DNA of 64,000 nucleotides from an uncultured Clostridia bacterium. GTDB lineage: Bacteria; Bacillota; Clostridia; UBA1381. This document shows positions 2,983 through 31,229 of the stretch, in pieces. The DNA is taken from positions 29,116 through 93,115 of the forward strand of contig CAKSRS010000002.1 of assembly GCA_934487205.1 (NCBI GenBank), written 5' to 3'. Below the pieces are notes generated by a model. That model was not told where the DNA came from, made no database searches, and saw only the letters and a list, made by a program, of their open reading frames with translations. How positions within the stretch are numbered: position 1 is the first letter of the stretch; each line of letters starts with the position of its first letter. A program made the translations under genes and the position numbers.

Positions 2983-3359
2983 GTCATATCCTCCTTAATA
3001 ATCCGAATTATAAATACATGTATTTGTCAATCAGTCTCGCGAAATGCGAAACTTATACATTTACATTTTAACATTAACAACATGTTCTGTAAATACAATA
3101 TCTTTACCAAAATGTGCAATATTTTTACTATTTTTTGATTATTAACTATTTTCCACCCATATAAAACAGCGAAAATATGTTAATATTTCAATATCATTAT
3201 CAAATAAAAAAATATAACTTGGTTATATTTACCAAATTAAATTGCACATTTTGGTAAAGATATTGTATTTACAAAGCAGTTTACACATGTTAGAATAAAC
3301 TCAGGTAAAATTATTGCAAAAATGCAAACAAAATATGAAGAAAGCGGAGTGAAAACAAT

Positions 3360-4706
3360 ATGATTAAAAATTTCTATACACCGAATGATTTTTCCGGAAG
3401 TGACAGCGAACGTATCCAAGCAGCAATATACGAAGCAAAAAAAACAGGCGCGGACAGGGTAGTTATACCGAAATACAACAGCGGAACGGATTCCATGAAA
3501 TGGGTTATCGATAAAACCATATTGCTGCCGTCAGACATAACAATTGTTCTTGATAATTGTTATATGGTTATGGCAGATGATACATATTGCCAAATGTTTG
3601 CAAACGAGAATCTGTTTGATGAACGCGGCAGGGACAAAAGCAATGAGCAAAAGAATATCAATATTATCGGCTGCGGCAATGCCGAAATATCCGGCGGAAA
3701 AGAGAATAAACTTAATGAATTCACTTCCAAAAAGGACGGAAACCCGCACGTTTCCGCCAATGTATTGATTTATCTTTATAACGTCCGTGACTTTAAAATA
3801 GAAGGATTTCGGATTTCGGATCAGCGTTGGTGGTCTATTTTGTTGCTGTACGCAAGATACGGCAGCGTAAAAAATATTGATTTCAAAATCAATTTCAGAC
3901 ACAGCTACGGCGTGTGGAGAAATCAGGACGGAATTGATTTGCGCAGCGGCTGCAACAATATAAGCATAGAAAATATCACCGGCGAAACCGGCGATGACAT
4001 GATAGCTTTGACAACTCTTATAAGCAAAAATCATTTTGAACATTCTTTGAAAATAGAGGGCAGAGATACCGATATTCACGACTGCACAATCCGTAATGTA
4101 AAAGGATTTTCAAATATGTGTGCAATCGTCAGATTGCTGAATCAGCATGGAAACAAAATATACAACATATCAATAAGCGATATCTTTGATGTCGGAACGC
4201 CGAAGCTCGAATCAAAGGTTCAAATGGTTTTAAGAATAGGCGAAGACTCATATTATGAATCATTTGCCGAACGCGCAAAACCCGATGAATTGTATAATAT
4301 TTCAATTAATAATATCTATTCAAAAGCGCTCAGCGCCATACATCTGGAATTGGCAGCAAAGAATTTGCATGCAAGCAATATATTTGTAACCGAAAAGGGA
4401 CATCATGCCGTAACATTGGGAAGATTTTATATGAATAATGTATTTATGTATATTCCGGAACGTTACGAGGAATATGAAAAAGAACGGCTTATTCCCGATA
4501 AGGATCTTAACAAAAAGACTACTTTGAAAAATGTACAAATCGAAAATATTTATTATTCCGCAAAGCCGGATTATTACAAACCCGCTGTATGCGCGGTATC
4601 AAACGCTGAGTTGATTAATGTAAGCGTAAAAAATATTTATGCGGAAGACGATATCAAAAAAGAGGAATATTTTAATATGGAAGAAAAAAATATTGTTCTT
4701 AATTAA
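3360..4706 (+). CDS. Right-handed beta-helix (pectin-lyase fold) glycoside hydrolase, GH28-like
   Basis: 448-aa ORF with repetitive beta-helix rungs. NQDGIDLRSG..GETGDDMIALT resembles the GH28 Asp cluster. It sits next to esterase genes. Confidence 0.65.
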   Translation: MIKNFYTPNDFSGSDSERIQAAIYEAKKTGADRVVIPKYNSGTDSMKWVIDKTILLPSDITIVLDNCYMVMADDTYCQMFANENLFDERGRDKSNEQKNINIIGCGNAEISGGKENKLNEFTSKKDGNPHVSANVLIYLYNVRDFKIEGFRISDQRWWSILLLYARYGSVKNIDFKINFRHSYGVWRNQDGIDLRSGCNNISIENITGETGDDMIALTTLISKNHFEHSLKIEGRDTDIHDCTIRNVKGFSNMCAIVRLLNQHGNKIYNISISDIFDVGTPKLESKVQMVLRIGEDSYYESFAERAKPDELYNISINNIYSKALSAIHLELAAKNLHASNIFVTEKGHHAVTLGRFYMNNVFMYIPERYEEYEKERLIPDKDLNKKTTLKNVQIENIYYSAKPDYYKPAVCAVSNAELINVSVKNIYAEDDIKKEEYFNMEEKNIVLN

Positions 4707-4777: not shown

Positions 4778-5032
4778 TTGATTCAGGAGTATAGCATCAA
4801 GAGTGCAGAAGATATTCAAGAGGCATTAAAAGACCTGTTGGGTGGAACGATTCAAAAAATGATGGAAACTGAACTTGACGAACATTTGGGATATAGTGAA
4901 TATGAGCGCAGCGACAATCCCGATTACCGGAACGGCGTAAAAAAGAAGAAATTGCGCAGTTCATACGGCGAAATACCGATTGGTGTTCCGCAAGACCGTG
5001 ACGGTGATATTCAGCATTTAATTACATTTTAA
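4778..5032 (+). pseudogene. IS256-family transposase fragment (N-terminal about 80 aa only)
   Basis: LKDLLGGTIQKMMETELDEHLGYSEYERS..YRNGVKKKKLRSSYGEIPIGVPQDRDG is the conserved N-terminal region of IS256/mutator-type transposases. The ORF ends after 84 aa and no DDE domain follows. Confidence 0.7.
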
Positions 5033-5061
5033 AAACATTTTATATTTGCAAAAAAAACGTG

Positions 5062-5089
5062 TTGACAAGTGTTTTTTCAGTGATATAAT
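5062..5089 (+). promoter_or_regulatory. Sigma-A type promoter upstream of the esterase gene
   Basis: TTGACA (5062-5067), 16-nt spacer ending in TGA, TATAAT (5084-5089). Confidence 0.5.
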
Positions 5090-5193
5090 TGAAACTATAT
5101 GGAAAACCATGTGAATTTAAAACTGATAAAGCGCCAAGAAAATCGCTTAAACCCTATATGGTATGGCGGATATTTTGATAAAGGAGATTAATT

Positions 5194-5937
5194 ATGGAAC
5201 TGAAAGACATATATTACACACGAAATAACATACCGGAGCAGTCGCTTGATATATTTTTACCGGATAATGCAAAGGGTGAAATACCTGTGTTTATATATTT
5301 TCACGGCGGCGGGCTGGAGTCCGGCAGAAAAGAAGAAATCCCGCCGCAGCATTTTGTTGAAAAGAATGTGGGAGTAGTATCAGTTAACTACCGTATGTAT
5401 CCCGATTACAGGTATCCGGATTTTTTATGGGACTGCGCTGCAAGCGTAAAATGGGTAACAGACAACATCGGGAACTATGCGAATGTCTCAAAAATATATG
5501 TAGGCGGTTCATCGGCAGGTGCATACATTGCAATGATGCTTTATTTTGACAGCAGATATTTTTCGACATACGGTGTTGATATTAACAAAATATCCGGATT
5601 TGTTTTCAATGCCGGTCAGCCGACGACGCATTATAACGTGCTTAGAGAACGCGGCATCGACTCAAGAAGGTGTATTATTGATGAGGCGGCTCCGCTGTTT
5701 CATATTGAGGAATACAAAAACCAACCTCCTGTGTTGATTTTTTGTGCGGATAATGATATGACTAACCGATATGAGCAAACGCTGCTGTTAATCGGAACAT
5801 TAAAGCATATGAATTATCCAGAAGAAAATATACAGTTTGAATATTTACGTGGTCACTGCCATTGTGATTACATCCAAGACGCAAAAGTATTTGCTGACAG
5901 GATTCTTGATTTTATAAACCGAAATAAGAGAAACTAA
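5194..5937 (+). CDS. Alpha/beta-hydrolase esterase (carbohydrate esterase/lipase-like)
   Basis: 247 aa. HGGG oxyanion motif (FHGGGLESG), GxSxG nucleophile elbow (GGSSAGA), and a GGAG RBS upstream. Confidence 0.8.
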   Translation: MELKDIYYTRNNIPEQSLDIFLPDNAKGEIPVFIYFHGGGLESGRKEEIPPQHFVEKNVGVVSVNYRMYPDYRYPDFLWDCAASVKWVTDNIGNYANVSKIYVGGSSAGAYIAMMLYFDSRYFSTYGVDINKISGFVFNAGQPTTHYNVLRERGIDSRRCIIDEAAPLFHIEEYKNQPPVLIFCADNDMTNRYEQTLLLIGTLKHMNYPEENIQFEYLRGHCHCDYIQDAKVFADRILDFINRNKRN

Positions 5938-6045
5938 GGATAAGGTTATTTGCTTTGAATATCGGAATTATCCGATGTTGCTGTAAAAGCACTGTTCAAA
6001 GTTTCATTTTGAAGTCGAAATAATACTGCCTGTGGAGGATAATAT

Positions 6046-6750
6046 ATGAAAATTTTATCAATAGGAAACAGTTTTTCTGAAGATGCACAACGGTATCTGC
6101 ACGCAATAGCGGAAGCCAACGGTAAAAAACTGACGTGTGCCAATCTGTATATCGGGGGCTGTTCATTAAGACAGCATTACATAAATCTATCAGACAACGA
6201 AAAAAACTACATTTTTCAATTTAACGGTGAGAACACGAATATTAAAATTTCAATCAAAGATGCGGTAAAAAGCAATGAATGGGATTACATAACGCTTCAG
6301 CAGGCAAGCCATGAGAGTTTTGATATCAATAACTATACACCATACCTCGAGAGCATAACAAAATGGTTGAGATTAAGATGTCCGAACACGAAAATATTGC
6401 TGCACCAGACATGGGCATATCCGCAAGACAGGGAAAGACTTTCGGAAGTTGGTTTTAAAACTACTGAGGAGATGTTTGCGGCAGTTAAAGACGCGTATAA
6501 TAAAGCCGAAAAATTGATAAATGCGGATAATATGATAAAAAGCGGCGACGCTATGCTTAAAGCATACAGGCTTAATCCTGACATTGTTTACCGCGATGCG
6601 ATTCATGCAAGCTACGGTTTTGGCAGATACCTCGTAGGCTGCGTTTGGTATAAGGCATTATTCAATCAAAAACCAAAAATTCAAATCAGCAGCTTTGATG
6701 AAAATATAACCGATGAGGGTTTAAAATTGATAGACAATATTATGCAGTAA
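6046..6750 (+). CDS. DUF4886-like SGNH-fold hydrolase
   Basis: 234 aa. The N-terminal KILSIGNSFSED motif is typical of DUF4886/SGNH-like proteins. GGAGG-type RBS (tggaggataatat ATG). Confidence 0.6.
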   Translation: MKILSIGNSFSEDAQRYLHAIAEANGKKLTCANLYIGGCSLRQHYINLSDNEKNYIFQFNGENTNIKISIKDAVKSNEWDYITLQQASHESFDINNYTPYLESITKWLRLRCPNTKILLHQTWAYPQDRERLSEVGFKTTEEMFAAVKDAYNKAEKLINADNMIKSGDAMLKAYRLNPDIVYRDAIHASYGFGRYLVGCVWYKALFNQKPKIQISSFDENITDEGLKLIDNIMQ

Positions 6751-6791
6751 ACCTGCGGTCGTTACAAACATAAACAGAGGTGAAGCTAATT

Positions 6792-6953
6792 ATGTATAAA
6801 CAAAAACTCGGATTTTCCATGTTTGGATCATATGAACACGGTATGTCAAGCGCCGTTAAGCTCATCAAAGACTGTAAGTTTGACGCGATCTCTCCCGTAT
6901 GGACAAATGATTACAACATAGAAGAAATTGCAAATGTACGAGTTACTTGGTAG
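6792..6953 (+). pseudogene. 5' stub (53 codons) of a gene truncated at the left boundary of repeat module copy A
   Basis: ATG 6792 with an AGAGGTG RBS. It reads MYKQKLGFSMFGSYEHGMSSAVKLIKDCKFDAISPVW.. and stops at the TAG formed inside GGTAGG, exactly where the repeat begins. Identity is uncertain (sugar-phosphate isomerase/TIM-barrel-like N-terminus). Confidence 0.4.
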
Positions 6954-6969
6954 GTGTAACACAATTTTT

Positions 6970-7057
6970 TTATACAAACCAAACAGGCTGCCCGATACGA
7001 GCAGCCTGTTTAGTCCACAAAAATTCCCATAGGTCTTTTTGAGATAATCAACAACAT
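6970..7057 (-). ncRNA. Candidate about 85-nt small RNA driven by P1 and ending at an intrinsic terminator (copy A)
   Basis: The perfect consensus promoter P1 lies 5-7 nt upstream. The transcript would end at hairpin 7011-6981 followed by UUUGGUUUGU. The sequence is identical in all three copies. Confidence 0.4.
6981..7011 (-). terminator. Intrinsic terminator hairpin of the P1 RNA (11-bp stem)
   Basis: AAACAGGCUGC/GCAGCCUGUUU stem followed by a U-rich tail on the minus strand. Copy B carries one substitution, which gives G.U on the minus-strand RNA but A-C on the plus strand. Confidence 0.6.
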
Positions 7058-7061
7058 TTTT

Positions 7062-7090
7062 ATTATACTACTATATGTTGTATTTGTCAA
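7062..7090 (-). promoter_or_regulatory. P1: perfect consensus sigma-A promoter (copy A)
   Basis: Minus strand TTGACA (7090-7085), 17-nt spacer, TATAAT (7067-7062). Conserved in copies B and C. Confidence 0.65.
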
Positions 7091-7197
7091 TAGTTTTTTA
7101 CAAATATATTTCATTATTTTCATTTTTGTTGCAACATAATTACTGCACGTTTGCACATGTGCGATTTGGGGCTTTTGTCTTTTTTCGTAAAAAGGCA

Positions 7198-7226
7198 TTG
7201 ACAAAACTGTAAAACAGGCGTATAAT
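7198..7226 (+). promoter_or_regulatory. P2: perfect consensus sigma-A promoter (copy A)
   Basis: TTGACA (7198-7203), 17-nt spacer, TATAAT (7221-7226). Both hexamers are conserved in copy B although the spacer carries 3 substitutions. Confidence 0.65.
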
Positions 7227-7232
7227 TACAAT

Positions 7233-7376
7233 AGAAAAAGGCAAAACCTCAAACGGTTATGCCAAGAAATCAGTTATTTATGCAATAACCGTCTTGCCAG
7301 AGGCGGTTATTGTGCGTTTATGGGAAATATTATCATTAAGATAATAAATACAAAAAGCGCTATGAGCAGCTTTTTC
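7233..7376 (+). ncRNA. Candidate about 145-nt structured RNA from P2, with an 18-nt hypervariable single-stranded segment (copy A)
   Basis: Hairpin HP1 is 7240-7263, the variable segment is 7265-7282, HP2 is 7283-7312, HP3 is 7328-7346, and a terminator-like hairpin plus U5 is at 7352-7375. Substitutions in HP1 and HP2 between copies are compensatory or wobble only for plus-strand RNA. Confidence 0.45.
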
Positions 7377-7520
7377 GCCATAAGTACAATGCTTACTTTT
7401 CATAAGCATACCCCCTTTCATAGACTCGGCATTTCTGCCTGTGAATATAAAAGTGTGGGCATAACCGCCGGTGTGAACACCGTTAAGAAATCTCGCCTTT
7501 AACATCGGATTACTCCGACA
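7350..7520 (-). ncRNA. Candidate about 170-nt structured RNA from P3 (copy A)
   Basis: Minus-strand hairpins carry GNRA loops. UCGGA-GUAA-UCCGA (7518-7505) has loop GCAA in copy B. GGCA-GAAA-UGCC is at 7439-7428. CGGUG-UUCA-CACCG is also present. It contains an AAAGGGGG Shine-Dalgarno 7 nt before AUG 7403. Confidence 0.4.
7352..7375. terminator. Candidate bidirectional terminator between the convergent P2 and P3 transcripts
   Basis: AAAAAGCGCUAUGAGCAGCUUUUU: an A-tract, a short GC hairpin and a U-tract. The same architecture reads on both strands. Confidence 0.35.
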
Positions 7521-7526
7521 AATCCT

Positions 7527-7555
7527 ATTATACACTATTATACGATGTTTTTCAA
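7527..7555 (-). promoter_or_regulatory. P3: near-consensus sigma-A promoter (copy A)
   Basis: Minus strand TTGAAA (7555-7550), 17-nt spacer, TATAAT (7532-7527). Conserved in copy B. Confidence 0.55.
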
Positions 7556-7633
7556 GAGATTTTGCAGAGAGCAATCAAATTGGTTGATAATGACTTATGC
7601 CCGCGGCGGACATTTTGACAGAATATGATAAAA

Positions 7634-8209
7634 TCACTTCGTTTCAATCAACAATTTTCTTGTCATTCCCGACCATGCTTTTGTAATTTCGTCGGTCAGA
7701 ATGGCATACTCAATACCTTTTTTAACACCTCTGTTATCCCATTCGTCCGTGAGTTCTTTTCGTACTTGAATAGCCTGCAAGCGTTGATTTATCCATTCTC
7801 TTGTATAGCCCTTTTTCAAATATGTCTCAAGAGCTCTGTCTATCGTAAGTTCCGGGTCTATCGTTTCGTCAATTCTCTCGGCACCGACTTGCGCAAGCCA
7901 TTGTTTGAACGGCTCGGCTTTGGGCGATGGAATTGACTGTATAATACGCAAAACGCCTTTTGTGTCCGACGCTTGAATTTTTCTTTTTTTTCCGTCGTGT
8001 GCAATCATTTCAACAGGGGTACAAATTGTACCCCACTTCAAATTCAGTTCAGGATCACGCTGACGCATTTTTTTGATATATTGTTTAACATCTTTGCTGT
8101 CGGTAAGTATTTCAACTATATCATAAATTGAAAAATACCATTCCTCGTGTTCGCTGTCCCACGCAGTACGGATTTTTTTATTTTCGAATATCTGTATATT
8201 ATTTTCCAT
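7634..8209 (-). CDS. Bro-N domain / DinD-like (DNA-damage-inducible protein D family) protein with a non-homologous 3' end
   Basis: 191 aa. Contains IRTAWDSEHEEWYFSIYDIVEILTDS (Bro-N) and KAEPFKQWLAQVG..ILTDEITKAWSGMT. Homology to the second dinD-like fragment (9030-9137) breaks at about 7672, just before module copy A. Confidence 0.7.
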   Translation of the reverse strand: MENNIQIFENKKIRTAWDSEHEEWYFSIYDIVEILTDSKDVKQYIKKMRQRDPELNLKWGTICTPVEMIAHDGKKRKIQASDTKGVLRIIQSIPSPKAEPFKQWLAQVGAERIDETIDPELTIDRALETYLKKGYTREWINQRLQAIQVRKELTDEWDNRGVKKGIEYAILTDEITKAWSGMTRKLLIETK

Positions 8210-8419
8210 TATGTATACCTCGTCAAAAAGGTTATTTCTAATATATCATACGTTCGTATAAAATACAAAAATATTGATTACTTTTTTTAACCACTTCCGC
8301 CCCGAACGACACCAATATAGCGTTGCCGGCTCGAAATTCGTTTTGGGCGGCTGTTTGGAAAATTATCCTTGCAATCAACAGTATGATGGTTATTTTAATC
8401 ACATAGTCGGTCTTTGGTT

Positions 8420-8977
8420 TTACATCATTTCCATTACAGACGCTATGTTATCGACCAAGAACTGCTGAGCGTCGCGGTCATACACAATAACCGAATATTC
8501 ACGGTCATCTCTTCTGCTGCGCCTTAACTCTGTTGTAATACCGATTTCATTGCCCATTTTGGTAGGTTTTTTTGTTATTTTTCCGTCGGGCATAGTTCCC
8601 ACACACAGCATTTTAACACTGATTAACCAATCTGTGAGATGTTTGTATGAAATCTTTTTCATATTCTTTTCCGCGTTGATTTCATTGATTCTCCGCGCAA
8701 TTTCGCTCATCGTTATAGACGTATCGCAAAAGCGAAACTTTTGAATTTCCTCAAAAGAAATATAAAAATTTTCCTTTGCCGTTTTCTTTTTATTAACCGT
8801 TCCGCCGTTTTCCGCCACCTGTCTTAAAACATCAGATATATAAAATAAACATCTTGAAATTTTAACATTGTTTATAATATCATTTTCCGGGATAATGGTA
8901 TTATCAAGCGGATTAATGCCGTTTGCCAGCTTATCTGTATATATTTTTGCTCTTTGTATCATCTCTAAATCCGTCAT
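8420..8977 (-). CDS. Hypothetical protein (185 aa)
   Basis: GAGGTG RBS and a clean ORF. No family was recognised. It is transcribed from the R1 outward promoter through a dinD fragment. Confidence 0.55.
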   Translation of the reverse strand: MTDLEMIQRAKIYTDKLANGINPLDNTIIPENDIINNVKISRCLFYISDVLRQVAENGGTVNKKKTAKENFYISFEEIQKFRFCDTSITMSEIARRINEINAEKNMKKISYKHLTDWLISVKMLCVGTMPDGKITKKPTKMGNEIGITTELRRSRRDDREYSVIVYDRDAQQFLVDNIASVMEMM

Positions 8978-9029
8978 TTGTACACCTCATCTTGTTTTCG
9001 TAAGTCAATCATTCCGGCACCGATTGCTA

Positions 9030-9137
9030 ATATTATCGCGCAAGGTTTCTTTCGTCAACCCTTTTAACGCTTTATACTTGCGTGTTGTCAATTCCCGACC
9101 GTGCTTTTGTACCTTCATCGGTCAGGATAGCATAATT
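9030..9137 (-). pseudogene. DinD-like C-terminal fragment (frameshifted)
   Basis: The reverse strand reads NYAILTDEGTKARSG, then in a shifted frame ELTTRKYKALKGLTKETLRDNISN. This is homologous to YAILTDEITKAWSGMT of 7634..8209 and continues past where that gene breaks off. Confidence 0.5.
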
Positions 9138-9163
9138 TTACCATGCATTTTTGTATATGTCAA
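9135..9163 (-). promoter_or_regulatory. Outward-facing promoter at the R1 end (copy B)
   Basis: Minus strand TTGACA (9163-9158), 17-nt spacer ending in TGG, TAAAAT (9140-9135). It reads into the dinD fragment and the 185-aa gene. Confidence 0.5.
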
Positions 9164-9408
9164 TAAAATAAATGATTTTCGCCATAGGCGTCTATAATAC
9201 CTTGCAACAATTTAAAATGTTTCATCTTCTATAATATGCCGCAAGCTTAAAAAATCAATTTATGATTTTACACCTTTGTCACCCGTAAGGAAACGGTAGG
9301 TAGGACACAATTTTCTTATACAAACCAAACAAGCTGCCCGAATACGAGCAGCCTGTTTAGTCCACAAAAATTCCCATAGGTCTTTTTGAGATAATCAACA
9401 ACATTTTT

Positions 9409-9437
9409 ATTATACTACTATATGTTGTATTTGTCAA
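9409..9437 (-). promoter_or_regulatory. P1 (copy B)
   Basis: TTGACA (9437-9432), 17 nt, TATAAT (9414-9409) on the minus strand. Confidence 0.6.
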
Positions 9438-9544
9438 TGGTTTTTTACAAATATATTTCATTATTTTCATTTTTGTTGCAACGCGATTACTGCATGTTTG
9501 CATATGAGCGATTTGTGGCTTTTGTCCTTTTTCGCAAAAAGGCA

Positions 9545-9573
9545 TTGACAAAACTATGAAACGGGCGTATAAT
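9545..9573 (+). promoter_or_regulatory. P2 (copy B)
   Basis: TTGACA (9545-9550), 17 nt, TATAAT (9568-9573). Confidence 0.6.
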
Positions 9574-9579
9574 TATAAT

Positions 9580-9724
9580 AGAAAAGGGCAAGACCTCAAA
9601 CGGTTATGCCACAACGCAAACTATATTAACAATAGCTGCCTGTGCCAGAGGCGGCTATTGTGCGTTTATGGGAAATATTATCATTAAGATAATAAATACA
9701 AAAAGCGCTATGAGCAGCTTTTTC
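9580..9724 (+). ncRNA. Candidate P2 RNA (copy B), with a different 18-nt variable segment
   Basis: HP1 is 9587-9610, the variable segment is 9612-9629 (CAACGCAAACTATATTAA versus AGAAATCAGTTATTTATG in copy A), and HP2 is 9630-9660. The remainder is identical to copy A. Confidence 0.45.
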
Positions 9725-9868
9725 GCCATAAGTACAATGCTTACTTTTCATAAGCATACCCCCTTTCATAGACTCGGCATTTCTGCCTGTGAATATAAAA
9801 GTGTGGGCATAACCGCCGGTGTGAACACCGTTAAGAAATCTCGCCTTTAACATCGGATTGCTCCGACA
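9698..9868 (-). ncRNA. Candidate P3 RNA (copy B)
   Basis: Same structure as copy A. The first tetraloop is GCAA instead of GUAA, so both are GNRA. Confidence 0.4.
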
Positions 9869-9874
9869 AATCCT

Positions 9875-9903
9875 ATTATACACCATTATACAATGTTTTT
9901 CAA
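9875..9903 (-). promoter_or_regulatory. P3 (copy B)
   Basis: TTGAAA (9903-9898), 17 nt, TATAAT (9880-9875) on the minus strand. Confidence 0.55.
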
Positions 9904-9992
9904 GAGATTTTGCAGCGATCAATCAAATTTGTCGATAATGACTTATGCCCGCGGCGGACATTTTGACAGGATAGCATAATTGCACCCGTTTT

Positions 9993-10304
9993 TTATAATA
10001 GCCATTTATAGTCTTGTCTGCAATCCACAACATAATCGACATAAACTGTGTTATCTTTAATTTGATAAATTAACAAATACCTTTTTGCCGCAAGTTTTTT
10101 TCTATATTTATTTGCAGGAATCTCATCACAGTTAAGCCACGGATAACTTTCAGGCATAAACTCCAAAGCTCTTATTTCGGTAATAATATCCTTATGCAGC
10201 TTTTTAGCAGTTTCAGGTGAAACATTCGCCAAAAATCTGACATGATTTACAAGCATTGATACAGCCTTGTCAGAAACTATAACATTATACTTCTTATCCG
10301 ACAT
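9993..10304 (-). CDS. Type II toxin, RelE/ParE superfamily
   Basis: 103 aa. It overlaps the upstream antitoxin by 11 nt. KYRKKLAAKRYLLIYQIKDNTVYVDYVVDCRQDY is typical of the ParE/RelE fold. Confidence 0.8.
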   Translation of the reverse strand: MSDKKYNVIVSDKAVSMLVNHVRFLANVSPETAKKLHKDIITEIRALEFMPESYPWLNCDEIPANKYRKKLAAKRYLLIYQIKDNTVYVDYVVDCRQDYKWLL

Positions 10305-10572
10305 GACTCACCCCGGACGCTGCATCGCCAAGCATTTTGTCAAGTTCATCAACCGAATACCCTTTTTTGCCCATGAACCTTTCTTCCTCTGCGGCAATAA
10401 GTTCTTCTCTTAATTTAAGCATCTTTTCCCGTCTTGAAAAGCTTTCAATATCCATAACTACCAAATCGCCCTCGCCGTTTTTCGTAAGATACACGGGTTC
10501 CCCTGTTTCTTTGCAGTAGTTGGAAATGTCATTATAATTGTTTCTGATTGCTGCCGACGGTCTGATATTCAT
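10294..10572 (-). CDS. Type II antitoxin, Phd/YefM family
   Basis: The start is taken at ATG 10572 (GAGGAG RBS). MNIRPSAAIRNNYNDISNYCKETGEPVYLTKNGEGDLVVMDIESF is the Phd/YefM N-domain. Confidence 0.8.
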   Translation of the reverse strand: MNIRPSAAIRNNYNDISNYCKETGEPVYLTKNGEGDLVVMDIESFSRREKMLKLREELIAAEEERFMGKKGYSVDELDKMLGDAASGVSHVG

Positions 10573-10627
10573 AAAATCAACTCCTCGCATAAATATTATA
10601 TATTTATTATACATTTTTGTTACTATA

Positions 10628-10656
10628 ATTATACCATTCATATCCGTATATGTCAA
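10628..10656 (-). promoter_or_regulatory. Outward-facing R1 promoter driving phd-relE (copy C)
   Basis: Minus strand TTGACA (10656-10651), 17-nt spacer ending in TGG, TATAAT (10633-10628). Confidence 0.55.
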
Positions 10657-10902
10657 TAATATAGTTGATTTTCGTTACAAGCGTCTATAATACCTTGCGG
10701 CAATTTAAAATGTTTCATCTTCTATAATATGCCGCAAGCTTAAAAAATCAATTTATGATTTTACACCTTTGTCCCCCGTAAGGAAACGGTAGGTAGGGCA
10801 CAATTTTTCTTATACAAACCAAACAGGCTGCCCGAATACGAGCAGCCTGTTTAGTCCACAAAAATTCCCATAGGTCTTTTTGAGATAATCAACAACATTT
10901 TT

Positions 10903-10931
10903 ATTATACTACTATATGTTGTATTTGTCAA
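10903..10931 (-). promoter_or_regulatory. P1 (copy C)
   Basis: TTGACA (10931-10926), 17 nt, TATAAT (10908-10903). The downstream small-RNA sequence and the terminator hairpin at 10821-10852 are intact. Confidence 0.6.
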
Positions 10932-11020
10932 TGGTTTTTTACAAATATATTTCATTATTTTCATTTTTGTTGCAATATAATTACCACGTGTTTGCATTTG
11001 TGCAGTTTGTGGCTTTTGTC

Positions 11021-11181
11021 ATCAGCTCTGGACATCAAGGGGTGCGGACATATTCTTGGACAGTTTATACTGATAATCCAAGACTATGTCTGTACTCAAC
11101 CGGACTCATATATCCGAGGGACTGTTTTATTCGTTCTACATTATACCAATCAATGTATGTATTGATTTCTTTGTGTATTGC
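11021..11181 (-). mobile_element. IS3-family remnant: terminal repeat plus the last about 38 codons of the transposase
   Basis: The reverse strand reads ..AIHKEINTYIDWYNVERIKQSLGYMSPVEYRHSLGLSV*, the conserved IS3 integrase C-terminus. The end sequence is GATGTCCAGAGCTGAT. Confidence 0.65.
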
Positions 11182-11185
11182 TAAC

Positions 11186-11443
11186 CTATTTACCGTCTCT
11201 TTCAAGTCGTACTTCTTTCACCAAAACCACAACATCATCAATGGTATTTAGTCCCAGCCTGTCTGCCTCGCCCGTAAAATCTTTTTGTATTTTTTCAAAA
11301 GCATACACCGCTGCGTTTTCAATACGTACCCGACCGTCCTGCTCAATAAAGCAAATCTTATCCCCTGTTTTTAGATTCAGCCGTTTTCTTATCGCAGTAA
11401 GTATCGTTACTCGTCCGCCCGGCATTACACATACCGTTTCCAT
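11186..11443 (-). CDS. AbrB/MazE/SpoVT-family DNA-binding protein (antitoxin-like)
   Basis: 85 aa. GGRVTILTAIRKRLNLKTGDKICFIEQDGRVRIE is a swapped-hairpin (looped-hinge helix) motif. Confidence 0.7.
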   Translation of the reverse strand: METVCVMPGGRVTILTAIRKRLNLKTGDKICFIEQDGRVRIENAAVYAFEKIQKDFTGEADRLGLNTIDDVVVLVKEVRLERDGK

Positions 11444-11512
11444 AATTGAACCACCTCACGCAAATTTTTTGGTAAAATATATTTCCACCGGGTGGAACTA
11501 CCACAAATATAT

Positions 11513-12916
11513 TTACTGCATAACCTGCCAATAGCCCTTCTTATCCGAGCCTATACGGCAGATAATATTCTTCCTTTTGAGAGATTTTATCAATTCACCG
11601 ACGGTTTTTCGGCTTACATCTAATTTTCCGGATAAATCATCATATGTGTAAGCCGGATCTTCCAATAAGAGTGCAATGAGCCGATTTTCAGTTTCAGTCA
11701 CCTTTTCAGTCACCCTACCAGTCACCTTTTCAGTCACCCTACCAGTCACCTTTTCAGTCACCCTACCAGTCACCTTTTCAGTCACCCTATCGGCTGATGT
11801 ACGCACAATTCTATCCTCGGGTGCCGAAAACTTTATCATTATATCCTGCGGGTGAACCGTAAATTCCGGTTGAAAAACGCCATCATTTTTGCATACAGTA
11901 CAGATTTTTTCTATTCCGCGTCCCCAGCTTTCAATAAAGCCAGCAAGATAAAATACGTAAGCTATGTTGGGGTTGAACGGCTGTGATGCATGTTTCTCAA
12001 AAAGATTTTCAACTGTCCAGTTTTCCGGCAAATGACCACAATTTGCAATATACAGTTTATCATTGTAAACGCTTATTTGAATTGGAATCCCCCTTGAATA
12101 ATCCTTATGACAAAGAGCATTCAAAAGTGCTTCACGCAAAGCTTCTTCCGGAACAAAATACCGTTCAATGCGTTGCATACCGACATAGTATATCTTCGCT
12201 TTCATATATTTTAAATAAATAAGCTCAACTATTTTATCAATTTGATCCAATATAGAGCCGTGAATTTCATCTTGATATACAAGGTCTGCATCGGTTTCAA
12301 AAAAACCTATTTTTACATAAGCGCCCAACTGCCATTTTTCCGGATCATTACTGAAAAGCAGCATAGCCGCATTTGTTAAATACCCGTCCTTTACCAAGTG
12401 AAGTTTCTCAAGCATAACAAATTTATCTTCCGATAAAACCGATTTGTTTATTCGTCCTTTGTTAACTGCCCATTGCTTAAATCGCTTAACGACCCCATCG
12501 TCGACATCGTCTGCTGTAAACGTAGGCAATGGCATACTGTCCCAGGTGACTCCCCGCCGTCTCATAATAAAGGTTTCCAGTTCAGGACCGGATAGCTTTT
12601 GATTTGTGCTACCGCTTCTGTAATAGTATGAGCCTTTGCAGGAGATAGCAATAGGGTAAGGTGGCACGTCTATTTCAACGTACTCACAATTGCCGTCGGT
12701 AAGAGAATTTATGTTAACAATAATCCCCATTGCATCACGAATTTTGTTCGGAAGATCTTCAAGCAGTTTTTTCGCATTTTTCACCCCTACAACTTCGCCG
12801 GAATCATTCATACCAATATACAGTTTTCCCCCCTGTGCATTTGCAAATCCACATATCCATGCAAGATAATCGTCTTTCCAGACTTCTTTCCACTCAACAT
12901 TTTGTTTTTCACGCAT
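11513..12916 (-). CDS. AlbA_2 (Schlafen-like divergent AAA) plus HATPase_c_4-type putative transcriptional regulator with a C-terminal wHTH
   Basis: 467 aa. NVEWKEVWKDDYLAWICGFANAQGGKLYIG is an AlbA_2 N-domain. ALREALLNALCHKDYS is the ATPase-like domain. It contains the in-frame repeat (RVTEKVTG)x4. Confidence 0.7.
   Translation of the reverse strand: MREKQNVEWKEVWKDDYLAWICGFANAQGGKLYIGMNDSGEVVGVKNAKKLLEDLPNKIRDAMGIIVNINSLTDGNCEYVEIDVPPYPIAISCKGSYYYRSGSTNQKLSGPELETFIMRRRGVTWDSMPLPTFTADDVDDGVVKRFKQWAVNKGRINKSVLSEDKFVMLEKLHLVKDGYLTNAAMLLFSNDPEKWQLGAYVKIGFFETDADLVYQDEIHGSILDQIDKIVELIYLKYMKAKIYYVGMQRIERYFVPEEALREALLNALCHKDYSRGIPIQISVYNDKLYIANCGHLPENWTVENLFEKHASQPFNPNIAYVFYLAGFIESWGRGIEKICTVCKNDGVFQPEFTVHPQDIMIKFSAPEDRIVRTSADRVTEKVTGRVTEKVTGRVTEKVTGRVTEKVTETENRLIALLLEDPAYTYDDLSGKLDVSRKTVGELIKSLKRKNIICRIGSDKKGYWQVMQ
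11695..11790. repeat. Perfect 24-bp tandem repeat x4 inside the AlbA_2-type gene
   Basis: CAGTCACCTTTTCAGTCACCCTAC at 11695, 11719, 11743 and 11767 (the last unit ends in T). It encodes RVTEKVTG units. Confidence 0.9.
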
Positions 12917-13318
12917 TTTATCATCTCCGGCTCATTTTTCTATAGTATACCACAAACTGTTAAAAAAATCAATTCGTGATATTTGTATGTTGAATATTTG
13001 ATTTCCCAATCCTGAAGATTCTCATTATGAGTTCCTCGAAATAGGATATCTCAGTTTTGTAATATCTCTTATGCGTGATGCATCTCAAATTTCAAACTGT
13101 CCTCATATTCCTCCAACTCCCCCTATCACAGAACGTCCCCTAACCTTATCTCCTCTTTATCTTGGTTTCCCCCCGTTCCTGCCCGCGGTCCGTGCATGAT
13201 AAGACCGCGGGCGGTTCCTGTGCTTACAAAGTACGGTCAAATTCGGCTTTTGCATTTGCCGTCCCCCGTAAGCACATTAGTGCGACAAATTTGCAAATCG
13301 CCCGATTTTGCAAACCCC

Positions 13319-13349: not shown

Positions 13350-13430
13350 GTTCCTTACGGGGGAAAGTGCGTGAATTTTTCACCCCTGTAGCCAACATTC
13401 ATTTTACACCTTTGTCACCCGTAAGGAAAC
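13350..13430. repeat. Imperfect about 80-bp palindrome made from two inverted copies of the R1-end motif
   Basis: GTTCCTTACGGGGGAAAGTGCGTGAA (13350-13375) against the reverse complement of TTTTACACCTTTGTCACCCGTAAGGAAAC (13402-13430). Confidence 0.6.
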
Positions 13431-13452
13431 GGTAGTATGACACAATTTTTTT
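13401..13452. repeat. Fourth, partial copy of the R1/R2 junction sequence
   Basis: ATTTTACACCTTTGTCACCCGTAAGGAAACGGTAG..GACACAATTTTT matches 9265-9315 and 10758-10810, then diverges. Confidence 0.75.
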
Positions 13453-13496: not shown

Positions 13497-13916
13497 TTAA
13501 GGTTTTAGCCTTTGCCGCATTAACTCAATCGCCATATGGTGATAGCAGTAATAGTTTGCGTAACTTGTAATTTTTACCTTTTCCCTCGTCTTTTCATAAC
13601 GCTCATTTGCCTTGTAAACTTTATCACAAAAATATGTATAATACAGAACCCAATAATATATCTCACCCGCTTCCTCATTTTCGCGTATATCTCGTACCGC
13701 TTTGTTTATCAGCTTTACCACTTTTATCGTGAGCTTACGTTCATTGCCGGTATAATTGATGTCATTGATGCCGGTTTCTTCTGCAAATTCTTCCGGTGAG
13801 CACAATATTTCCGGCTCATATCCAACCTCTTTTTCTACTTTTTGCAATTCTCTTGCAAGCTTCATATCGCGGTAGTTGTTTAGCAACAATACTACCCGTT
13901 TTTGTTCTTCTGTCAA
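13497..13916 (-). CDS. ArpU/sigma-70 region-4-like small transcriptional regulator (paralog 2)
   Basis: The start is taken at TTG 13916 (GGAGGAGG RBS, 7-nt spacing), directly after the upstream stop. The YYWVLYYTYF motif is shared with the neighbouring gene. Confidence 0.55.
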   Translation of the reverse strand: MTEEQKRVVLLLNNYRDMKLARELQKVEKEVGYEPEILCSPEEFAEETGINDINYTGNERKLTIKVVKLINKAVRDIRENEEAGEIYYWVLYYTYFCDKVYKANERYEKTREKVKITSYANYYCYHHMAIELMRQRLKP

Positions 13917-13918
13917 TT

Positions 13919-14449
13919 TTATACCTCCTCCGGCTTTACAAGCGTTTTCGTTATTTCCATACACTCTTTTGAGGTGTATCCCCACAGCATTGTGCTTAAT
14001 AGATTTATTGCCTGTCTGCGGTAGTTAAAGTACGTCTGCCACGATACATAGTACTGTTTTTGCGCAATCTTGTCCACAATCTGGTCGACGCTTTCTAAAG
14101 GCTTTTCGCACAGGTATGTATAATACAAAACCCAGTACATCATCTCGCCTTTTTGATGTTTTCTGCGGATAATTTCGACCGCACGGTCAATAAGCTGCAG
14201 CATCTTACGGTTACGTTCCATTGTTCGAACCTGTTCCTCAATTTTTGTATTCATCAAATCCGCTCCGGCAGCGTATGACATATCCAAAAATTCTGTCATT
14301 TTACAGCCCGTTTCAAATTCAAAATTGACCTCCGCCTGCATCGCCGATACCTCAATGCTCCACACGACATCGCGGTATTTTTTGAGCAGCAGCTCCGTGT
14401 TGTGATACAAAAATTCGTTGTTTTTCTCGATTGTGCTTTTCTTTTCCAT
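13919..14449 (-). CDS. ArpU/sigma-70 region-4-like small transcriptional regulator (paralog 1)
   Basis: 176 aa. It carries the MYWVLYYTYL motif. Its start overlaps the RepA_N stop by 1 nt. Confidence 0.55.
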   Translation of the reverse strand: MEKKSTIEKNNEFLYHNTELLLKKYRDVVWSIEVSAMQAEVNFEFETGCKMTEFLDMSYAAGADLMNTKIEEQVRTMERNRKMLQLIDRAVEIIRRKHQKGEMMYWVLYYTYLCEKPLESVDQIVDKIAQKQYYVSWQTYFNYRRQAINLLSTMLWGYTSKECMEITKTLVKPEEV

Positions 14450-15387
14450 TAGTTATCGTCCTTTCTGAAATAATTCTTGTTAAATTTTGATTGATAATAG
14501 TGATTCATTGTGTCCGGGGCGTTATACAGCATCGTCAAAATATAGCTTTTGTAATTGCGAATTTTTGTGCTGTTCTCGTCCAGACAGTCGATTACATACA
14601 CGATGTGCATATAATCGAGTTTTAAGAGCTTTCTTTTTACCACCTCCTTTGGCACTTGCATACTGTTGACATTGATTTTATCGTCAAAGCTGCATATTGC
14701 GTCGACTATGATATTTACAAAGCCGTCGATTTTCTCGGCAGCGTATTGCTGAATTAAGATGTCATACTCGATATTGGTTCTGATTACGTCCCTGTATTCC
14801 TCTCTTTCCCTCTCTAAGGCGGCAAATGAAATGCGTGAGGAAGAAGATATATCAGTTTTATTCAAATCTGTATTATTAATATCAGTATTATTAGAGTCGG
14901 ATATGCCGAAGTCAAGAGTTCGGTTTTTCAGAAGTGCAGACTTCGGTTTTTCAGAAGTCAAGACTTCGGCATTTTCGCCTGACTTCGGTTTTTCAGAAGT
15001 CTGGACTTCGGCTGAGTTATCAACACTTTGGATTGAATTTTGATTGTCCGTAAAATTTAAAACATAAATAATAACCGGCTTACCTAAGCCCTGCTTTTTG
15101 CGTTCTATCAAAATCCCGTCCAATTCTTTTAATAACTTCACACCTTTGTCCTTGCCGATTGATAAATAATCCGTGATTTCCTCAAGTGTGAAATATATGT
15201 AAACTCGGTTATCATCATCGACCCAGTTATTGCGAACCGACAAACTCATTCTGTCGAGCATTAAACCGTACAAAACTTTTGCCTCCACTGAAATTCCGGC
15301 ATACCGGCTGTCGGTAAACAATAATTTCGGTATTCGATAAAATGCGAACTGTTCCGATTCACTTTTGTAAAAAAAATTATTTTTCAT
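14449..15387 (-). CDS. RepA_N-family plasmid replication initiator
   Basis: The start is taken at ATG 15387 (GAGGAGG RBS). FYRIPKLLFTDSRYAGISVEAKVLYGLMLDRMSLS..YIYFTLEEI is the RepA_N N-terminal domain. The central linker is repetitive. Confidence 0.8.
   Translation of the reverse strand: MKNNFFYKSESEQFAFYRIPKLLFTDSRYAGISVEAKVLYGLMLDRMSLSVRNNWVDDDNRVYIYFTLEEITDYLSIGKDKGVKLLKELDGILIERKKQGLGKPVIIYVLNFTDNQNSIQSVDNSAEVQTSEKPKSGENAEVLTSEKPKSALLKNRTLDFGISDSNNTDINNTDLNKTDISSSSRISFAALEREREEYRDVIRTNIEYDILIQQYAAEKIDGFVNIIVDAICSFDDKINVNSMQVPKEVVKRKLLKLDYMHIVYVIDCLDENSTKIRNYKSYILTMLYNAPDTMNHYYQSKFNKNYFRKDDN
14908..15016. repeat. Five about 23-bp direct repeats inside repA (candidate iterons / internal origin)
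   Basis: The (A/T/G)GACTTCGG cores recur at 14916, 14939, 14962, 14981 and 15004, with GTTTTTCAGAAGT following three of them. Confidence 0.6.
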
Positions 15388-15413
15388 TGCCCATTCCTCC
15401 TCATTTTTGCACG

Positions 15414-15445
15414 AAAAAAGCAGACACACTTAATTGCATGTCTGC
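15414..15445 (-). terminator. Intrinsic terminator downstream of the cotJC 3' segment
   Basis: Minus strand GCAGACA-ugcaauuaagug-UGUCUGC followed by UUUUUU. Confidence 0.6.
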
Positions 15446-16088: not shown

Positions 16089-16664
16089 ATGGCTTTACAA
16101 AAAGAGGTTGAACCCATTAAGAACACAAGAGATATTAACAAAATCAAGCAGTATTTATACGGAAAAGAAAACAAGAGGGATTACTGTATATTTGTAGTCG
16201 GTATCAATGTCGGATTAAGGGCAGGGGACCTATTATCACTCAAAATAAAGGACATTACAGACGGAAACATAATATTTGATACTGTAACCATTAAAGAACA
16301 GAAAACGGGCAAAACAAGGAATTTTGCATTAAATAAAAACGCTAAGGAGTCAATAAAAATATATCTTAACTCTTTAACGGATTATGACTTTGAAGATTAT
16401 CTTTTTAAAAGCAGAAAAGGCGGTCATTTAGGGGTAAGACCGTTACATCATATAATTAAGACACTTACAAAGGATTTAGGGATTAAGGGTAATTTCGGGA
16501 CACATACATTAAGAAAAACTATGGCTTATCACAGATACATAAATAATGTGCCGTTAGAAACACTCCAAAAGCTCCTCAATCACTCGTCAAGTGCAATTAC
16601 ATTAAGATATATAGGCATTACTCAAAAAGTGATTATAGACTGCTATAATGCAGTAAATTTATGA
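16089..16664 (+). CDS. Small tyrosine site-specific recombinase (phage integrase family)
   Basis: 191 aa. GLRAGDLLSLK, HTLRKTMAYH and LNHSSSAITLRYI match the R..H-x-x-R..Y catalytic boxes. Confidence 0.75.
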   Translation: MALQKEVEPIKNTRDINKIKQYLYGKENKRDYCIFVVGINVGLRAGDLLSLKIKDITDGNIIFDTVTIKEQKTGKTRNFALNKNAKESIKIYLNSLTDYDFEDYLFKSRKGGHLGVRPLHHIIKTLTKDLGIKGNFGTHTLRKTMAYHRYINNVPLETLQKLLNHSSSAITLRYIGITQKVIIDCYNAVNL

Positions 16665-29436: not shown

Positions 29437-29533
29437 AATTCTTCTCCGTTCTGCCGATAATTTAACCTTACACAGCTGCGACATTTTTATGAACATTTCC
29501 GACAAACACCGTCTGCACCGGGAATAGACGGCA

Positions 29534-29615
29534 CATTGCGCTTTTTGGTGCGGCGACGGCGTATATTCATACTCCGAGCCGTGAATACGCGTGAAATGCG
29601 ACGCATATCTTCCGC
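29534..29615. repeat. Diverged single copy of the about 111-bp intergenic repeat family
   Basis: GCGGCGACGGCGTATATTCATACTCCGAGCCGTGAATACGCGTGAAATGCG aligns with the units at 30301-30520. Confidence 0.6.
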
Positions 29616-29619
29616 ATTT

Positions 29620-30183
29620 TCAGTTGTTGTACTTGTTCATCGCACTATCTGTTCCGTGAGATATAATTTCTTCCACGGCTTTTGCGGCGCGGATAATCGA
29701 CTCCTCCAAAACAGGAATTTCCTCCTTGCCAAAACGCGCAAGCACAAAATCCGCCAAATCCATTTTTTCGCGCAGAGGTGAGTCAACACCTACGCGTATG
29801 CGCGGGAAATTGTCGGAATTAAGCTGATATATTATGGATTTTAACCCGTTGTGTCCGCCGGCGGAACCTTTGGCGCGTATGCGCAGTCTGCCCGCGGCAA
29901 GGTTTATGTCATCATTAATTACGATGATGTTTTCAACGGGAATTTTGTAAAACGCGGCAAATTCGCGTATACTCTCGCCAGATAAATTCATGAAGGTTGT
30001 CGGCTTTAGTAAAATTGCCTTTTCGCCGCCGATTACCGCGTCGGCATATAATCCCTTGAATTTCAGCTTTTTCACCTTTACATTATATTTATCCGCCATG
30101 TAATCTATGACCTCAAAGCCAATGTTATGGCGCGTCATTTCATATTGTCGTCCCGGATTGCCGAGACCTGCTATTAAATACAT
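29620..30183 (-). CDS. pth: Peptidyl-tRNA hydrolase
   Basis: 187 aa. MYLIAGLGNPG..Y..TRHN.GF and GGHNGLKS motifs. Confidence 0.95.
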   Translation of the reverse strand: MYLIAGLGNPGRQYEMTRHNIGFEVIDYMADKYNVKVKKLKFKGLYADAVIGGEKAILLKPTTFMNLSGESIREFAAFYKIPVENIIVINDDINLAAGRLRIRAKGSAGGHNGLKSIIYQLNSDNFPRIRVGVDSPLREKMDLADFVLARFGKEEIPVLEESIIRAAKAVEEIISHGTDSAMNKYNN

Positions 30184-30189
30184 TTTTCT

Positions 30190-31225: not shown

Positions 31226-31229
31226 AATA

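Follow-up and report, generated by a model that had tools for sequence, protein, structure and literature searches.

We analysed a 64,000-nucleotide (nt) stretch of DNA from an uncultured Clostridia bacterium (contig CAKSRS010000002.1, positions 29,116 to 93,115; the whole stretch is hereafter called the window), in which a repeat module is present in three copies, named A (6949-7621), B (9132-9969) and C (10625-11020). We propose that a type I toxin-antitoxin-like locus, of a family not annotated before, is present in each full repeat, a reading to which we give a probability of about 75%. In such a locus, promoter P3 would transcribe an mRNA of ~290 nt for a 24-residue membrane-type peptide. 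At full length, this mRNA is expected to be translationally inert, with segments of its 5'-untranslated region (UTR) paired with its own 3' end and an anti-Shine-Dalgarno sequence covering part of the ribosome-binding site. The convergent promoter P2 would drive an antisense RNA of ~145 nt complementary to the mRNA over the 3' half of the latter, with the entire open reading frame (ORF), and this RNA would prevent translation, cause the mRNA to be degraded, or both. In the window the core appears to have been joined to two further parts, a small-RNA unit specific to the lineage (P1) and an outward promoter (P4), the latter of which would drive the next cargo operon. The parts of the core in the two full copies are as follows.

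7527-7555, minus strand: P3, promoter of the predicted toxin mRNA, copy A (TTGAAA-17-TATAAT, 11/12 consensus positions)
9875-9903, minus strand: P3, copy B (promoter scan, 11/12)
7233-7521, minus strand: predicted toxin mRNA, copy A, ~289 nt, its ends placed from the promoter and the terminator
9580-9869, minus strand: predicted toxin mRNA, copy B, placed by homolog alignment and coordinates
7458-7497, minus strand: 5'-UTR pairing segments GGCGAGATTTC (7487-7497) and GGCGGTTATGCC (7458-7469), predicted to pair with the mRNA 3' end at 7240-7263
7411-7418, minus strand: Shine-Dalgarno sequence AAAGGGGG, partly paired with the anti-Shine-Dalgarno sequence at 7445-7454
7307-7381, minus strand: 24-codon ORF with its stop, copy A, encoding the putative membrane toxin MAKKLLIALFVFIILMIIFPINAQ (from an ORF list reaching down to 20 codons)
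9655-9729, minus strand: 24-codon ORF, copy B, encoding the same peptide as copy A, with the stop codon TAG
7283-7312, minus strand: stop-codon hairpin (CAATAACCG...CGGTTATTG), from the consensus structure
7233-7263, minus strand: terminator of the toxin mRNA, with its hairpin (GGCATAACC/GGTTTTGCC) and T tract, from sequence and conservation
7198-7226, plus strand: P2, promoter of the antisense RNA, copy A (TTGACA-17-TATAAT, 12/12)
9545-9573, plus strand: P2, copy B (12/12)
7233-7375, plus strand: predicted cis-antisense (antitoxin) RNA, copy A, about 143-145 nt, spanning the whole ORF, with predicted ends
9580-9723, plus strand: predicted antisense RNA, copy B, from the homolog alignment

The initial annotation of this DNA had stated that no ORF in the repeat looks like a real gene. 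This statement overlooked a 24-codon hydrophobic ORF, which sits in a block that is identical between both full copies. The block covers the 199 nt first reported (7313-7511 in copy A, 9661-9859 in copy B) and 5 nt more, a run of 204 nt, and its end is the stop codon of the ORF, TAA in copy A and TAG in copy B. The ORF is positioned downstream of P3 and is wholly covered by the predicted transcript from P2. Its product has a basic N-terminus, 17 consecutive apolar residues, and a polar tail. In other genomes the ORF was exactly 24 codons long in 78 of 79 complete copies, the lone exception (L049) being due to a 1-nt frameshift, and the homologs comprised 23 distinct peptides and 28 distinct nucleotide sequences. 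Every homologous peptide starts with M-(A/V/T/R/K)-K-K, followed by a hydrophobic stretch and a short polar tail.

The substitutions in the 24-codon frame followed the pattern of a protein-coding sequence. At codon positions 1, 2, and 3 the minimum numbers of substitutions were 35, 19, and 36; position 2, which determines the hydrophobicity of a residue, is protected. The synonymous share of pairwise codon differences was 0.35 in this frame, compared with 0.06 in an overlapping 41-codon frame and 0.10 in the third frame, and a 12-sequence set gave the same synonymous and positional pattern as the larger set. Judged by the substitution pattern, the retained start and stop codons, and the fixed length, the 24-codon frame is the coding frame. 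None of ten 24-amino acid (aa) peptides was found in a collection of 15 billion proteins. Comparison of the ten with the Pfam and NCBIfam profiles returned no family, only chance resemblance to signal-peptide-like N-termini (E >= 0.1), and no literature match was found for the peptide strings. Another hydrophobic ORF, of 45 codons on the plus strand (7075-7212), was rejected after a comparison of copies A and B by hand, which gave 8 non-synonymous and 3 synonymous differences, including V>E and G>V.

P3 and P2, the two promoters that delimit the core, are conserved features of the family as well. The three promoters first described for the repeat, P1, P2, and P3, are indeed present with 17-nt spacers, P1 and P2 matching the consensus at 12/12 positions and P3 at 11/12. 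A promoter scan of 6700-11300 returned 35 sigma-70-like sites, compared with 18.9 ± 5.1 in shuffled sequences; six sites were perfect (12/12), namely P1 three times, P2 twice, and P4 once (10656>10628). Across 13 divergent homologs the -35 and -10 boxes of P3 were conserved (TTGAAA/TTGAAT, 17 nt, TATAAT), the P2 hexamers (TTGACA-17-TATAAT) were invariant in 13/13, and homology stopped at the two -35 boxes. The presence of P3 and P2 in every divergent homolog, with drifting spacer bases, is in agreement with the earlier proposal that the promoters are under selection. Being a perfect consensus, P2 is predicted from its sequence to be stronger than P3.

We then consider the RNA that P3 would produce. 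The predicted transcript (7521>7233) folded with a minimum free energy (MFE) of -104.6 kcal/mol (z = -7.67), and its elements are predicted to run in the order 5' hairpin, long-range pairing segments, anti-Shine-Dalgarno/Shine-Dalgarno helix, ORF, stop-codon hairpin, and terminator. Consensus structures obtained with RNAalifold from 12 distinct homologs (alignment A1) and then from 34 (A3) were the same both times. In the 12-sequence alignment 97.1% of the cells were paired, versus 35-48% when the partners were slid by 1-3 columns, and the covariation score was reached in none of 500 shuffles. Conservation beyond the promoters covered the ~140-nt leader, the Shine-Dalgarno sequence, the 24-codon ORF, the stop-codon hairpin, and the terminator. 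The 5' hairpin was swapped entirely for a different hairpin in four loci (L031, L041, L066, and L084).

The consensus contains long-range helices in which the 5'-UTR segments GGCAAGACUUC and GGCGGUUAUGCC pair with the 3'-terminal GGCAUAACCGUU...GAGGUCUUGCC. These helices have 11 + 12 pairs, with 99-100% of the cells paired, they also appear in the single-sequence MFE structure, and each holds one double compensatory change (L019, L039). Many of their pairs are G-U, specific to this strand, since they would be mismatched on the opposite one. Closer to the ORF, an anti-Shine-Dalgarno helix formed by CUUUUAUAU and AUGAAAGG (columns 78-95/100-118 of alignment A1) covers part of the ribosome-binding site, and an 8-base pair (bp) hairpin (7389-7409; columns 123-130/136-143) lies between the Shine-Dalgarno sequence and the toxin AUG. 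Two further consensus hairpins fall within the ORF. Of the pairs in the stop-codon hairpin, 4-5 had compensatory changes on both sides in A1, and in A3 as many as 13 of the 34 sequences were changed on both sides. Copies A and B also differ from each other in this region. Terminator-like hairpins had been noted in the repeat from the start, and they are real, comprising an 18-bp stem in the P1 RNA and the terminator and stop-codon hairpins of the toxin mRNA.

The predicted P2 transcript (7233>~7375) likewise folded with a z-score of -5.06. It is predicted to form a 5' hairpin and a 12-bp central hairpin, both of which carry compensatory changes. In most homologs a hairpin and a U tract lie over the complement of toxin codons 2-9, the KK codons giving the U tract, and the free energy of this terminator-like hairpin ranged from -5 to -11 kcal/mol in nine homologs.

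Searches for relatives placed the core in other uncultured Clostridia. No match was obtained when copy B was compared by blastn with plasmids and phages, exact 24-25-mers from the leader and the P1 RNA were absent from viral contigs, and an exact 21-mer of the ORF was absent from GTDB genomes. One relative (L009) carries a 75-aa version of a spurious frame, described below; with its translation as query we retrieved 32 proteins of 54-96% identity, and their contigs gave divergent copies of the module. The invariant motif around the ribosome-binding site, TGCCGAGTCTATGAAAGGNGG, was found at 6 loci in species-representative genomes and at 41 metagenome loci. The six genome loci all belong to metagenome-assembled genomes (MAGs) of uncultured Clostridia/Clostridiales, one of them from the Acutalibacteraceae. 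In total, ~80 copies of a ~390-bp core were recovered from gut and rumen metagenomes and uncultured Clostridia MAGs.

The multi-copy habit seen in the window recurs among these relatives. At one locus (L047, Ga0256406_1019771, 2498-4015) at least four cores form a tandem head-to-tail array with 415-416-nt spacing. Each copy has its own P3 and P2, and the copies show diverged peptides, compensated stop-codon hairpins, and diverging pairing regions. The neighbours of other copies were AbiEii, HicAB, MazE-like, or resolvase genes or, occasionally, core genes, as between pyrG and ispG (L031) and between ppx and an ABC transporter gene (L036), and no conserved partner gene was found across the contexts examined. 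We rejected a riboswitch or leader of a downstream gene, because what lies downstream, and in which orientation, changes with every context.

The initial annotation had correctly found no fit to an insertion sequence (IS), a miniature inverted-repeat transposable element (MITE), a clustered regularly interspaced short palindromic repeat (CRISPR) array, an attC site, a retron, or an intron. Its further conclusion that the architecture lies outside known categories has to be withdrawn, as the layout is that of a standard type I toxin-antitoxin locus, a class it did not consider. Published type I systems have mRNAs of 150-400 nt, peptides of 20-60 aa, and antisense RNAs of 60-200 nt (PMC8594479). 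The locus described here has a hydrophobic ORF within the 20-60-aa range and a predicted mRNA within the 150-400-nt range with a sequestered ribosome-binding site, and it is multi-copy and unannotated. On the antisense side it has a convergent P2 conserved in 13 homologs and a predicted RNA with covarying hairpins and a terminator-like 3' end. Overlap on the 3' side is typical of the Gram-positive type I families (PMC8594479), and tandem repetition is a published search criterion for type I loci (PMC2887945). The 5'-3' long-distance interaction is established for the hok and aapA mRNAs (PMC6733600). Among Clostridia only the systems of C. difficile, with toxins of 34-53 aa, are characterised (PMC6563280).

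Four comparisons place the locus more closely. In hok/Sok of Enterobacteria, as is predicted here, the mRNA is a few hundred nt long, its 5' and 3' ends pair, and the full-length form is inert (PMC6733600); the product is also a small membrane peptide, and the system stabilises mobile DNA. In contrast, Sok pairs with the 5' leader and not with the ORF or 3' end, Hok has ~50 aa, the host belongs to another phylum, and there is no sequence similarity. The aapA/IsoA systems of Helicobacter share a ~30-aa peptide, the 5'-3' interaction together with hairpins masking the Shine-Dalgarno sequence, an antisense RNA that overlaps the ORF, and several paralogous loci with module-specific pairing regions (PMC6733600, PMC8594479). 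They differ in that IsoA lies opposite the 5' part of the mRNA, whereas here the convergent antisense RNA would start at the mRNA 3' end, and both sequences and hosts are unrelated. Ibs/Sib of Enterobacteria resembles the locus in that Ibs has 18-19 aa and is almost wholly hydrophobic, the antisense RNA spans the entire ORF (PMC8594479), and the loci are tandem, intergenic, and were first noticed as repeats (PMC2887945). There is, however, no profile or covariance-model match to Ibs/Sib; the peptide here has 24 aa with a KK N-terminus, the 5'-UTR is long and structured with 5'-3' closure, and the host is a Gram-positive anaerobe. Finally, txpA/RatA, bsrG/SR4, CD2517.1/RCd8 of C. difficile, and their relatives are convergent genes that overlap in the 3' side and the ORF (PMC8594479) and, like the present locus, occur in prophages or mobile elements and near defence loci. 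Their toxins are longer (34-59 aa) with lysine-rich C-terminal tails, and there is no sequence or Rfam similarity; against these Gram-positive families, a peptide of 24 aa and a strong 5'-3' fold-back stand out as unusual.

No profile of a known type I toxin family in Pfam or NCBIfam (Ibs, Fst/Ldr, TxpA, Hok, and others) matched, and no Rfam 15 antitoxin or small-RNA family (Sok, Sib, RatA, RNAII/par, SprA1as, and others) gave a hit near its gathering score. Over the whole window Rfam 15 returned nothing at the gathering threshold, and relaxing to E <= 10 gave chance hits only (E >= 1.4); this was a check the initial annotation had suggested, and no family was matched. With no profile match, no protein record, and no literature match, the family is apparently undescribed, as first supposed. 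The peptides of type I loci fall below gene-calling limits, and their RNAs evolve fast. On its architecture, we would place the core as a new family within a known class and not as a new category of element.

Several points weigh against the type I interpretation. The transcripts, the toxicity, and the neutralisation are predictions rather than experimental results, and no known type I toxin or antitoxin family resembles the locus in sequence, so that membership is assigned by architecture. The depth of the alignments is limited and their sequences come mostly from a narrow clade, and the covariation counts are therefore modest. In 4 of the 13 homologs the antisense RNA has a weak terminator. 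The strong Shine-Dalgarno sequence precedes the AUG of the 24-codon ORF by 29 nt, a position that suits the overlapping 41-codon frame better, so that translation of the peptide would need either a hairpin that shortens the spacing or coupling to the upstream frame. Such coupling is known from mok, a Shine-Dalgarno-proximal overlapping frame upstream of and across the hok toxin ORF, to which the 41-codon frame is analogous; the latter may be translated as a mok-like leader. With the hairpin between the Shine-Dalgarno sequence and the AUG formed, the GGGGG core would stand ~8 nt from the toxin AUG instead of 29.

The evidence for the ORF and the antisense RNA would serve equally well for an antisense-regulated small membrane peptide that is not a toxin, for example a regulatory or accessory subunit of a membrane complex. 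Some copies do lie between core genes (L031, L036), and some predicted type I candidates proved non-toxic in the work of Fozo et al. (PMC2887945). We nevertheless consider this alternative unlikely. The locus lacks a conserved partner gene, the tandem arrays hold copies with diverging peptides and pairing regions, the copies are associated with mobile elements and with other toxin-antitoxin or defence genes, and the mRNA is predicted to silence itself in an elaborate way, all of which are more typical of toxins than of small housekeeping proteins.

The repeats themselves were confirmed at the positions first given and at close to the identity of ~93% first counted by hand: global alignment gave 92.5% between A and B and 92.4% between B and C, and a repeat search gave 94%, 97%, and 91% for segments of the copies. 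All three are direct repeats in the same orientation inside a larger mobile element. A non-autonomous MITE-like element or a site-specific cassette junction, with the promoters as incidental passengers, would account for the multiple copies in varied contexts, for the cargo cassettes between copies, and for a 15-nt direct repeat, CAGGATAGCATAATT, that brackets copy B (9123-9137 and 9966-9980). It is nonetheless very unlikely. The 15-mer falls within a 'YAIL' coding remnant, from a PDC-S13-like gene, that recurs; a search of 5000-13000 gave no inverted repeat of 30 nt or more (short terminal inverted repeats were not searched exhaustively); and the module boundaries in other genomes coincide with the two promoters. 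Head-to-tail arrays at 416 nt are at odds with transposition, and the rearrangements described below are those of homologous recombination. The label "mobile module" in the initial annotation is weakly supported: the core does occur in many unrelated contexts and in tandem arrays, but no transposition features were found.

The 41-codon frame (MKSKHCTYGEK...) overlaps the 24-codon ORF, and its AUG lies 7 nt after the Shine-Dalgarno sequence AAAGGGGG. Could this frame encode the real product? Its AUG is optimally spaced from a strong Shine-Dalgarno sequence, every homolog keeps it open, over 41-50 codons, and gene callers pick this frame or extended versions of it. Past the first ~10 codons, however, it diverges non-conservatively in sequence and in C-terminal length, and only 6% of its codon differences are synonymous, a substitution pattern against a true gene. 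Its openness is explicable as a by-product, because a stop there needs a charged or polar codon (AAx, AGx, GAx) next in the hydrophobic frame, and such codons are seldom present in the peptide core. We rejected it as a gene and regard it as highly improbable that it specifies the product of the locus. As an observation on existing databases, gene callers annotate a spurious frame of 41-112 aa over the leader and the ORF, and never the 24-aa peptide (7278-7574 and 9626-9922, minus strand, in the window; P0001-P0032 elsewhere); in one of these proteins, P0012, a natural frameshift fuses the 41-codon and 24-codon frames. Exact look-ups of the spurious 98-aa and 60-aa ORFs of the window found neither on record.

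A purely non-coding, RNA-encoding mobile module with incidental small ORFs would suit the lack of a Pfam or NCBIfam hit for any ORF, the strong conservation of promoters and RNA structure, and the likeness of the P1 unit to a stand-alone small-RNA gene, and it is the least credible of the alternatives given an ORF of 24 codons in 78 of 79 copies, retained start and stop codons, a 3-nt period, a synonymous fraction six times that of the overlapping frame, and an identical block that ends at the stop codon. The first description of the repeat as a non-coding RNA module was right that RNA is central, in the form of a structured mRNA and a cis-antisense RNA, and wrong about the core, which is a conserved 24-codon peptide gene.

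The type I-like core accounts for part of each full repeat only. Outside it, the window copies carry the following.

7062-7090, minus strand: P1, copy A (12/12)
6968-7055, minus strand: predicted P1 transcript, copy A, ~88 nt, with an 18-bp terminator hairpin at 6978-7014
9314-9437, minus strand: P1 promoter (9437>9409) and P1 RNA (9402>9314), copy B, from the promoter scan and folding
9132-9314, minus strand: 183-nt extension with P4 (9163>9135), copy B, facing the genes of the 184-aa protein and the Bro-N/PDC-S13 cargo
10625-11020, minus strand: copy C, with the P1 unit and the P4 extension only, the toxin-antitoxin core having been lost at the IS3 junction
11065-11205, minus strand: IS3-family integrase-core remnant that truncates copy C (rve_2, 1.3e-10)

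The truncation of copy C by an IS3 remnant, as first described, was confirmed, with homology lost at 11020 and the rve_2 integrase-core fragment alongside. The P1 promoter of this copy is at 10931>10903. The P1 RNA is identical across the three window copies and is predicted to fold with a free energy of -35 (z -6.4) into a hairpin followed by UUUGU. Neither the P1 part (7197-6949) nor the P4 extension (9314-9132) had a counterpart in any locus from other genomes, the P1 RNA being confined to this species, and we rejected both as members of the conserved family. Judged from these comparisons, the repeat is a composite, of which only the ~390 bp from P3 to P2 are kept elsewhere. The P1 RNA had no match in Rfam, the best sub-threshold hits (E >= 1.4) falling on its terminator hairpin. 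We also rejected it as a second antitoxin or trans-regulator, its complementarity to the toxin mRNA and the antisense RNA being within that of shuffled controls, and a search for targets elsewhere in the window gave no match of more than 12 nt. The P1 RNA may be an attenuator, an insulator between the core and the cargo promoter, or a small RNA in its own right.

P4 is a fourth promoter that the initial annotation did not list, at 9163>9135 and 10656>10628 on the minus strand. The first site is TTGACA-17-TAAAAT with an upstream TG (11/12), and the second is perfect (12/12). The 183-nt extension is common to copies B and C, and the P4 of copy C faces Phd/ParE. As P4 lies ~50-150 nt upstream of each cargo operon, it is likely the cargo promoter. 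A 50-nt piece of the start of the P4 extension (96% identical) was also seen at 13401-13449, downstream of an ORF at 13497-13985 (minus strand); it is perhaps what is left of a fourth junction.

The element that holds the repeats is integrated; it encodes a RepA_N/DUF6017 protein (14449-15429, minus strand) and, at 16089-16664, a tyrosine recombinase, and its left end, at 6949, truncates a chromosomal ORF. This 53-codon ORF (6792-6950, plus strand) stops exactly at the left end of copy A, and the same truncated ORF is also among the called genes of L001 and L009. Apparently the element was inserted into the gene at 6792-6950 or underwent recombination with it. Read along the minus strand, the IS3 remnant comes first, followed by copy C (P1, P4), Phd/ParE, copy B (core, P1, P4), the 184-aa gene, the Bro-N protein, copy A (core, P1), and chromosome. 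The three direct repeats sit between defence and toxin-antitoxin cargo genes of the element, where the composite probably stabilises the element and would also be a substrate for homologous recombination.

The Bro-N protein (7634-8209, minus strand) matches the PADLOC candidate defence family PDC-S13 (1.3e-90), but over only 187 of the 286 positions of the profile. DNA coding for its C-terminal 'EYAILTDE' is met again at 9087-9137 as the remnant NYAILTDEGTKARSG, and degenerate 'EYAILTDE' coding remnants lie at the heads of copies A and B (7617-7636 and 9962-9985). From these sequences, recombination within PDC-S13-like genes is suggested as the origin of the composite repeat.

Both reciprocal A/B recombinant junctions occur in human gut metagenomes. 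In L001 and L002 a ParE flank is followed by a hybrid module (B-type head, A-type tail) and the chromosomal gene, the cassette with the 184-aa and Bro-N genes being deleted. The reciprocal junction was found in L016, where a Bro-N flank leads into a module with an A-type head and a B-type tail, and then P4, an arrangement that would correspond to a duplication or an excised circle. The switch point of the hybrids lies inside the 204-nt identical block, and switching within such a long identical block points to homologous recombination. A wider idea, which we put forward tentatively and hold to be rather improbable, is that the composite repeat is a portable cassette junction for integron-like shuffling without an integrase. 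An addiction module would then flank each defence or toxin-antitoxin cargo cassette on both sides and at the same time provide its promoter; homologous recombination driven by the identical blocks would delete cassettes, duplicate them, or excise them as circles; and the P1 RNA could regulate the arrangement.

Other features of the window were recorded beside the repeats. A Schlafen/AlbA_2-HATPase_c_4-HTH gene (11513-12916, minus strand) contains an in-frame tandem repeat with a 12/24-nt period (11671-11813); its product has 467 aa here and in L009 and 459 aa in L010, and the 8-aa gap equals one 24-nt unit in size. Adjoining the IS3 remnant is an 84-aa AbrB/PrlF-like antitoxin-type ORF (11186-11443, minus strand) with a weak PrlF_antitoxin hit (E = 0.0023) and without an obvious partner toxin. 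A family of 87-nt direct repeats, in three copies of 64-92% identity, occupies 29527-30517, near the ORFs at 30521-31264 and 29620-30183 (both minus strand).

Together, these data describe a complete and conserved candidate family from uncultured gut and rumen Clostridia, in which promoters, predicted mRNA fold, peptide, and antisense RNA are all defined. Its putative 24-aa toxin would be among the shortest known, and its hok/aapA-like fold-back is of a kind mainly known from Gram-negative systems. Annotation pipelines mishandle such loci, calling the spurious 41-112-aa frame and never the real peptide. In practice, the family may provide those who do genetics on poorly tractable gut Clostridia with strong promoters and a compact kill-and-rescue pair. 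The recombinants document that such putative toxin-antitoxin modules, arranged as direct repeats, mediate the loss and gain of cargo cassettes in natural populations.

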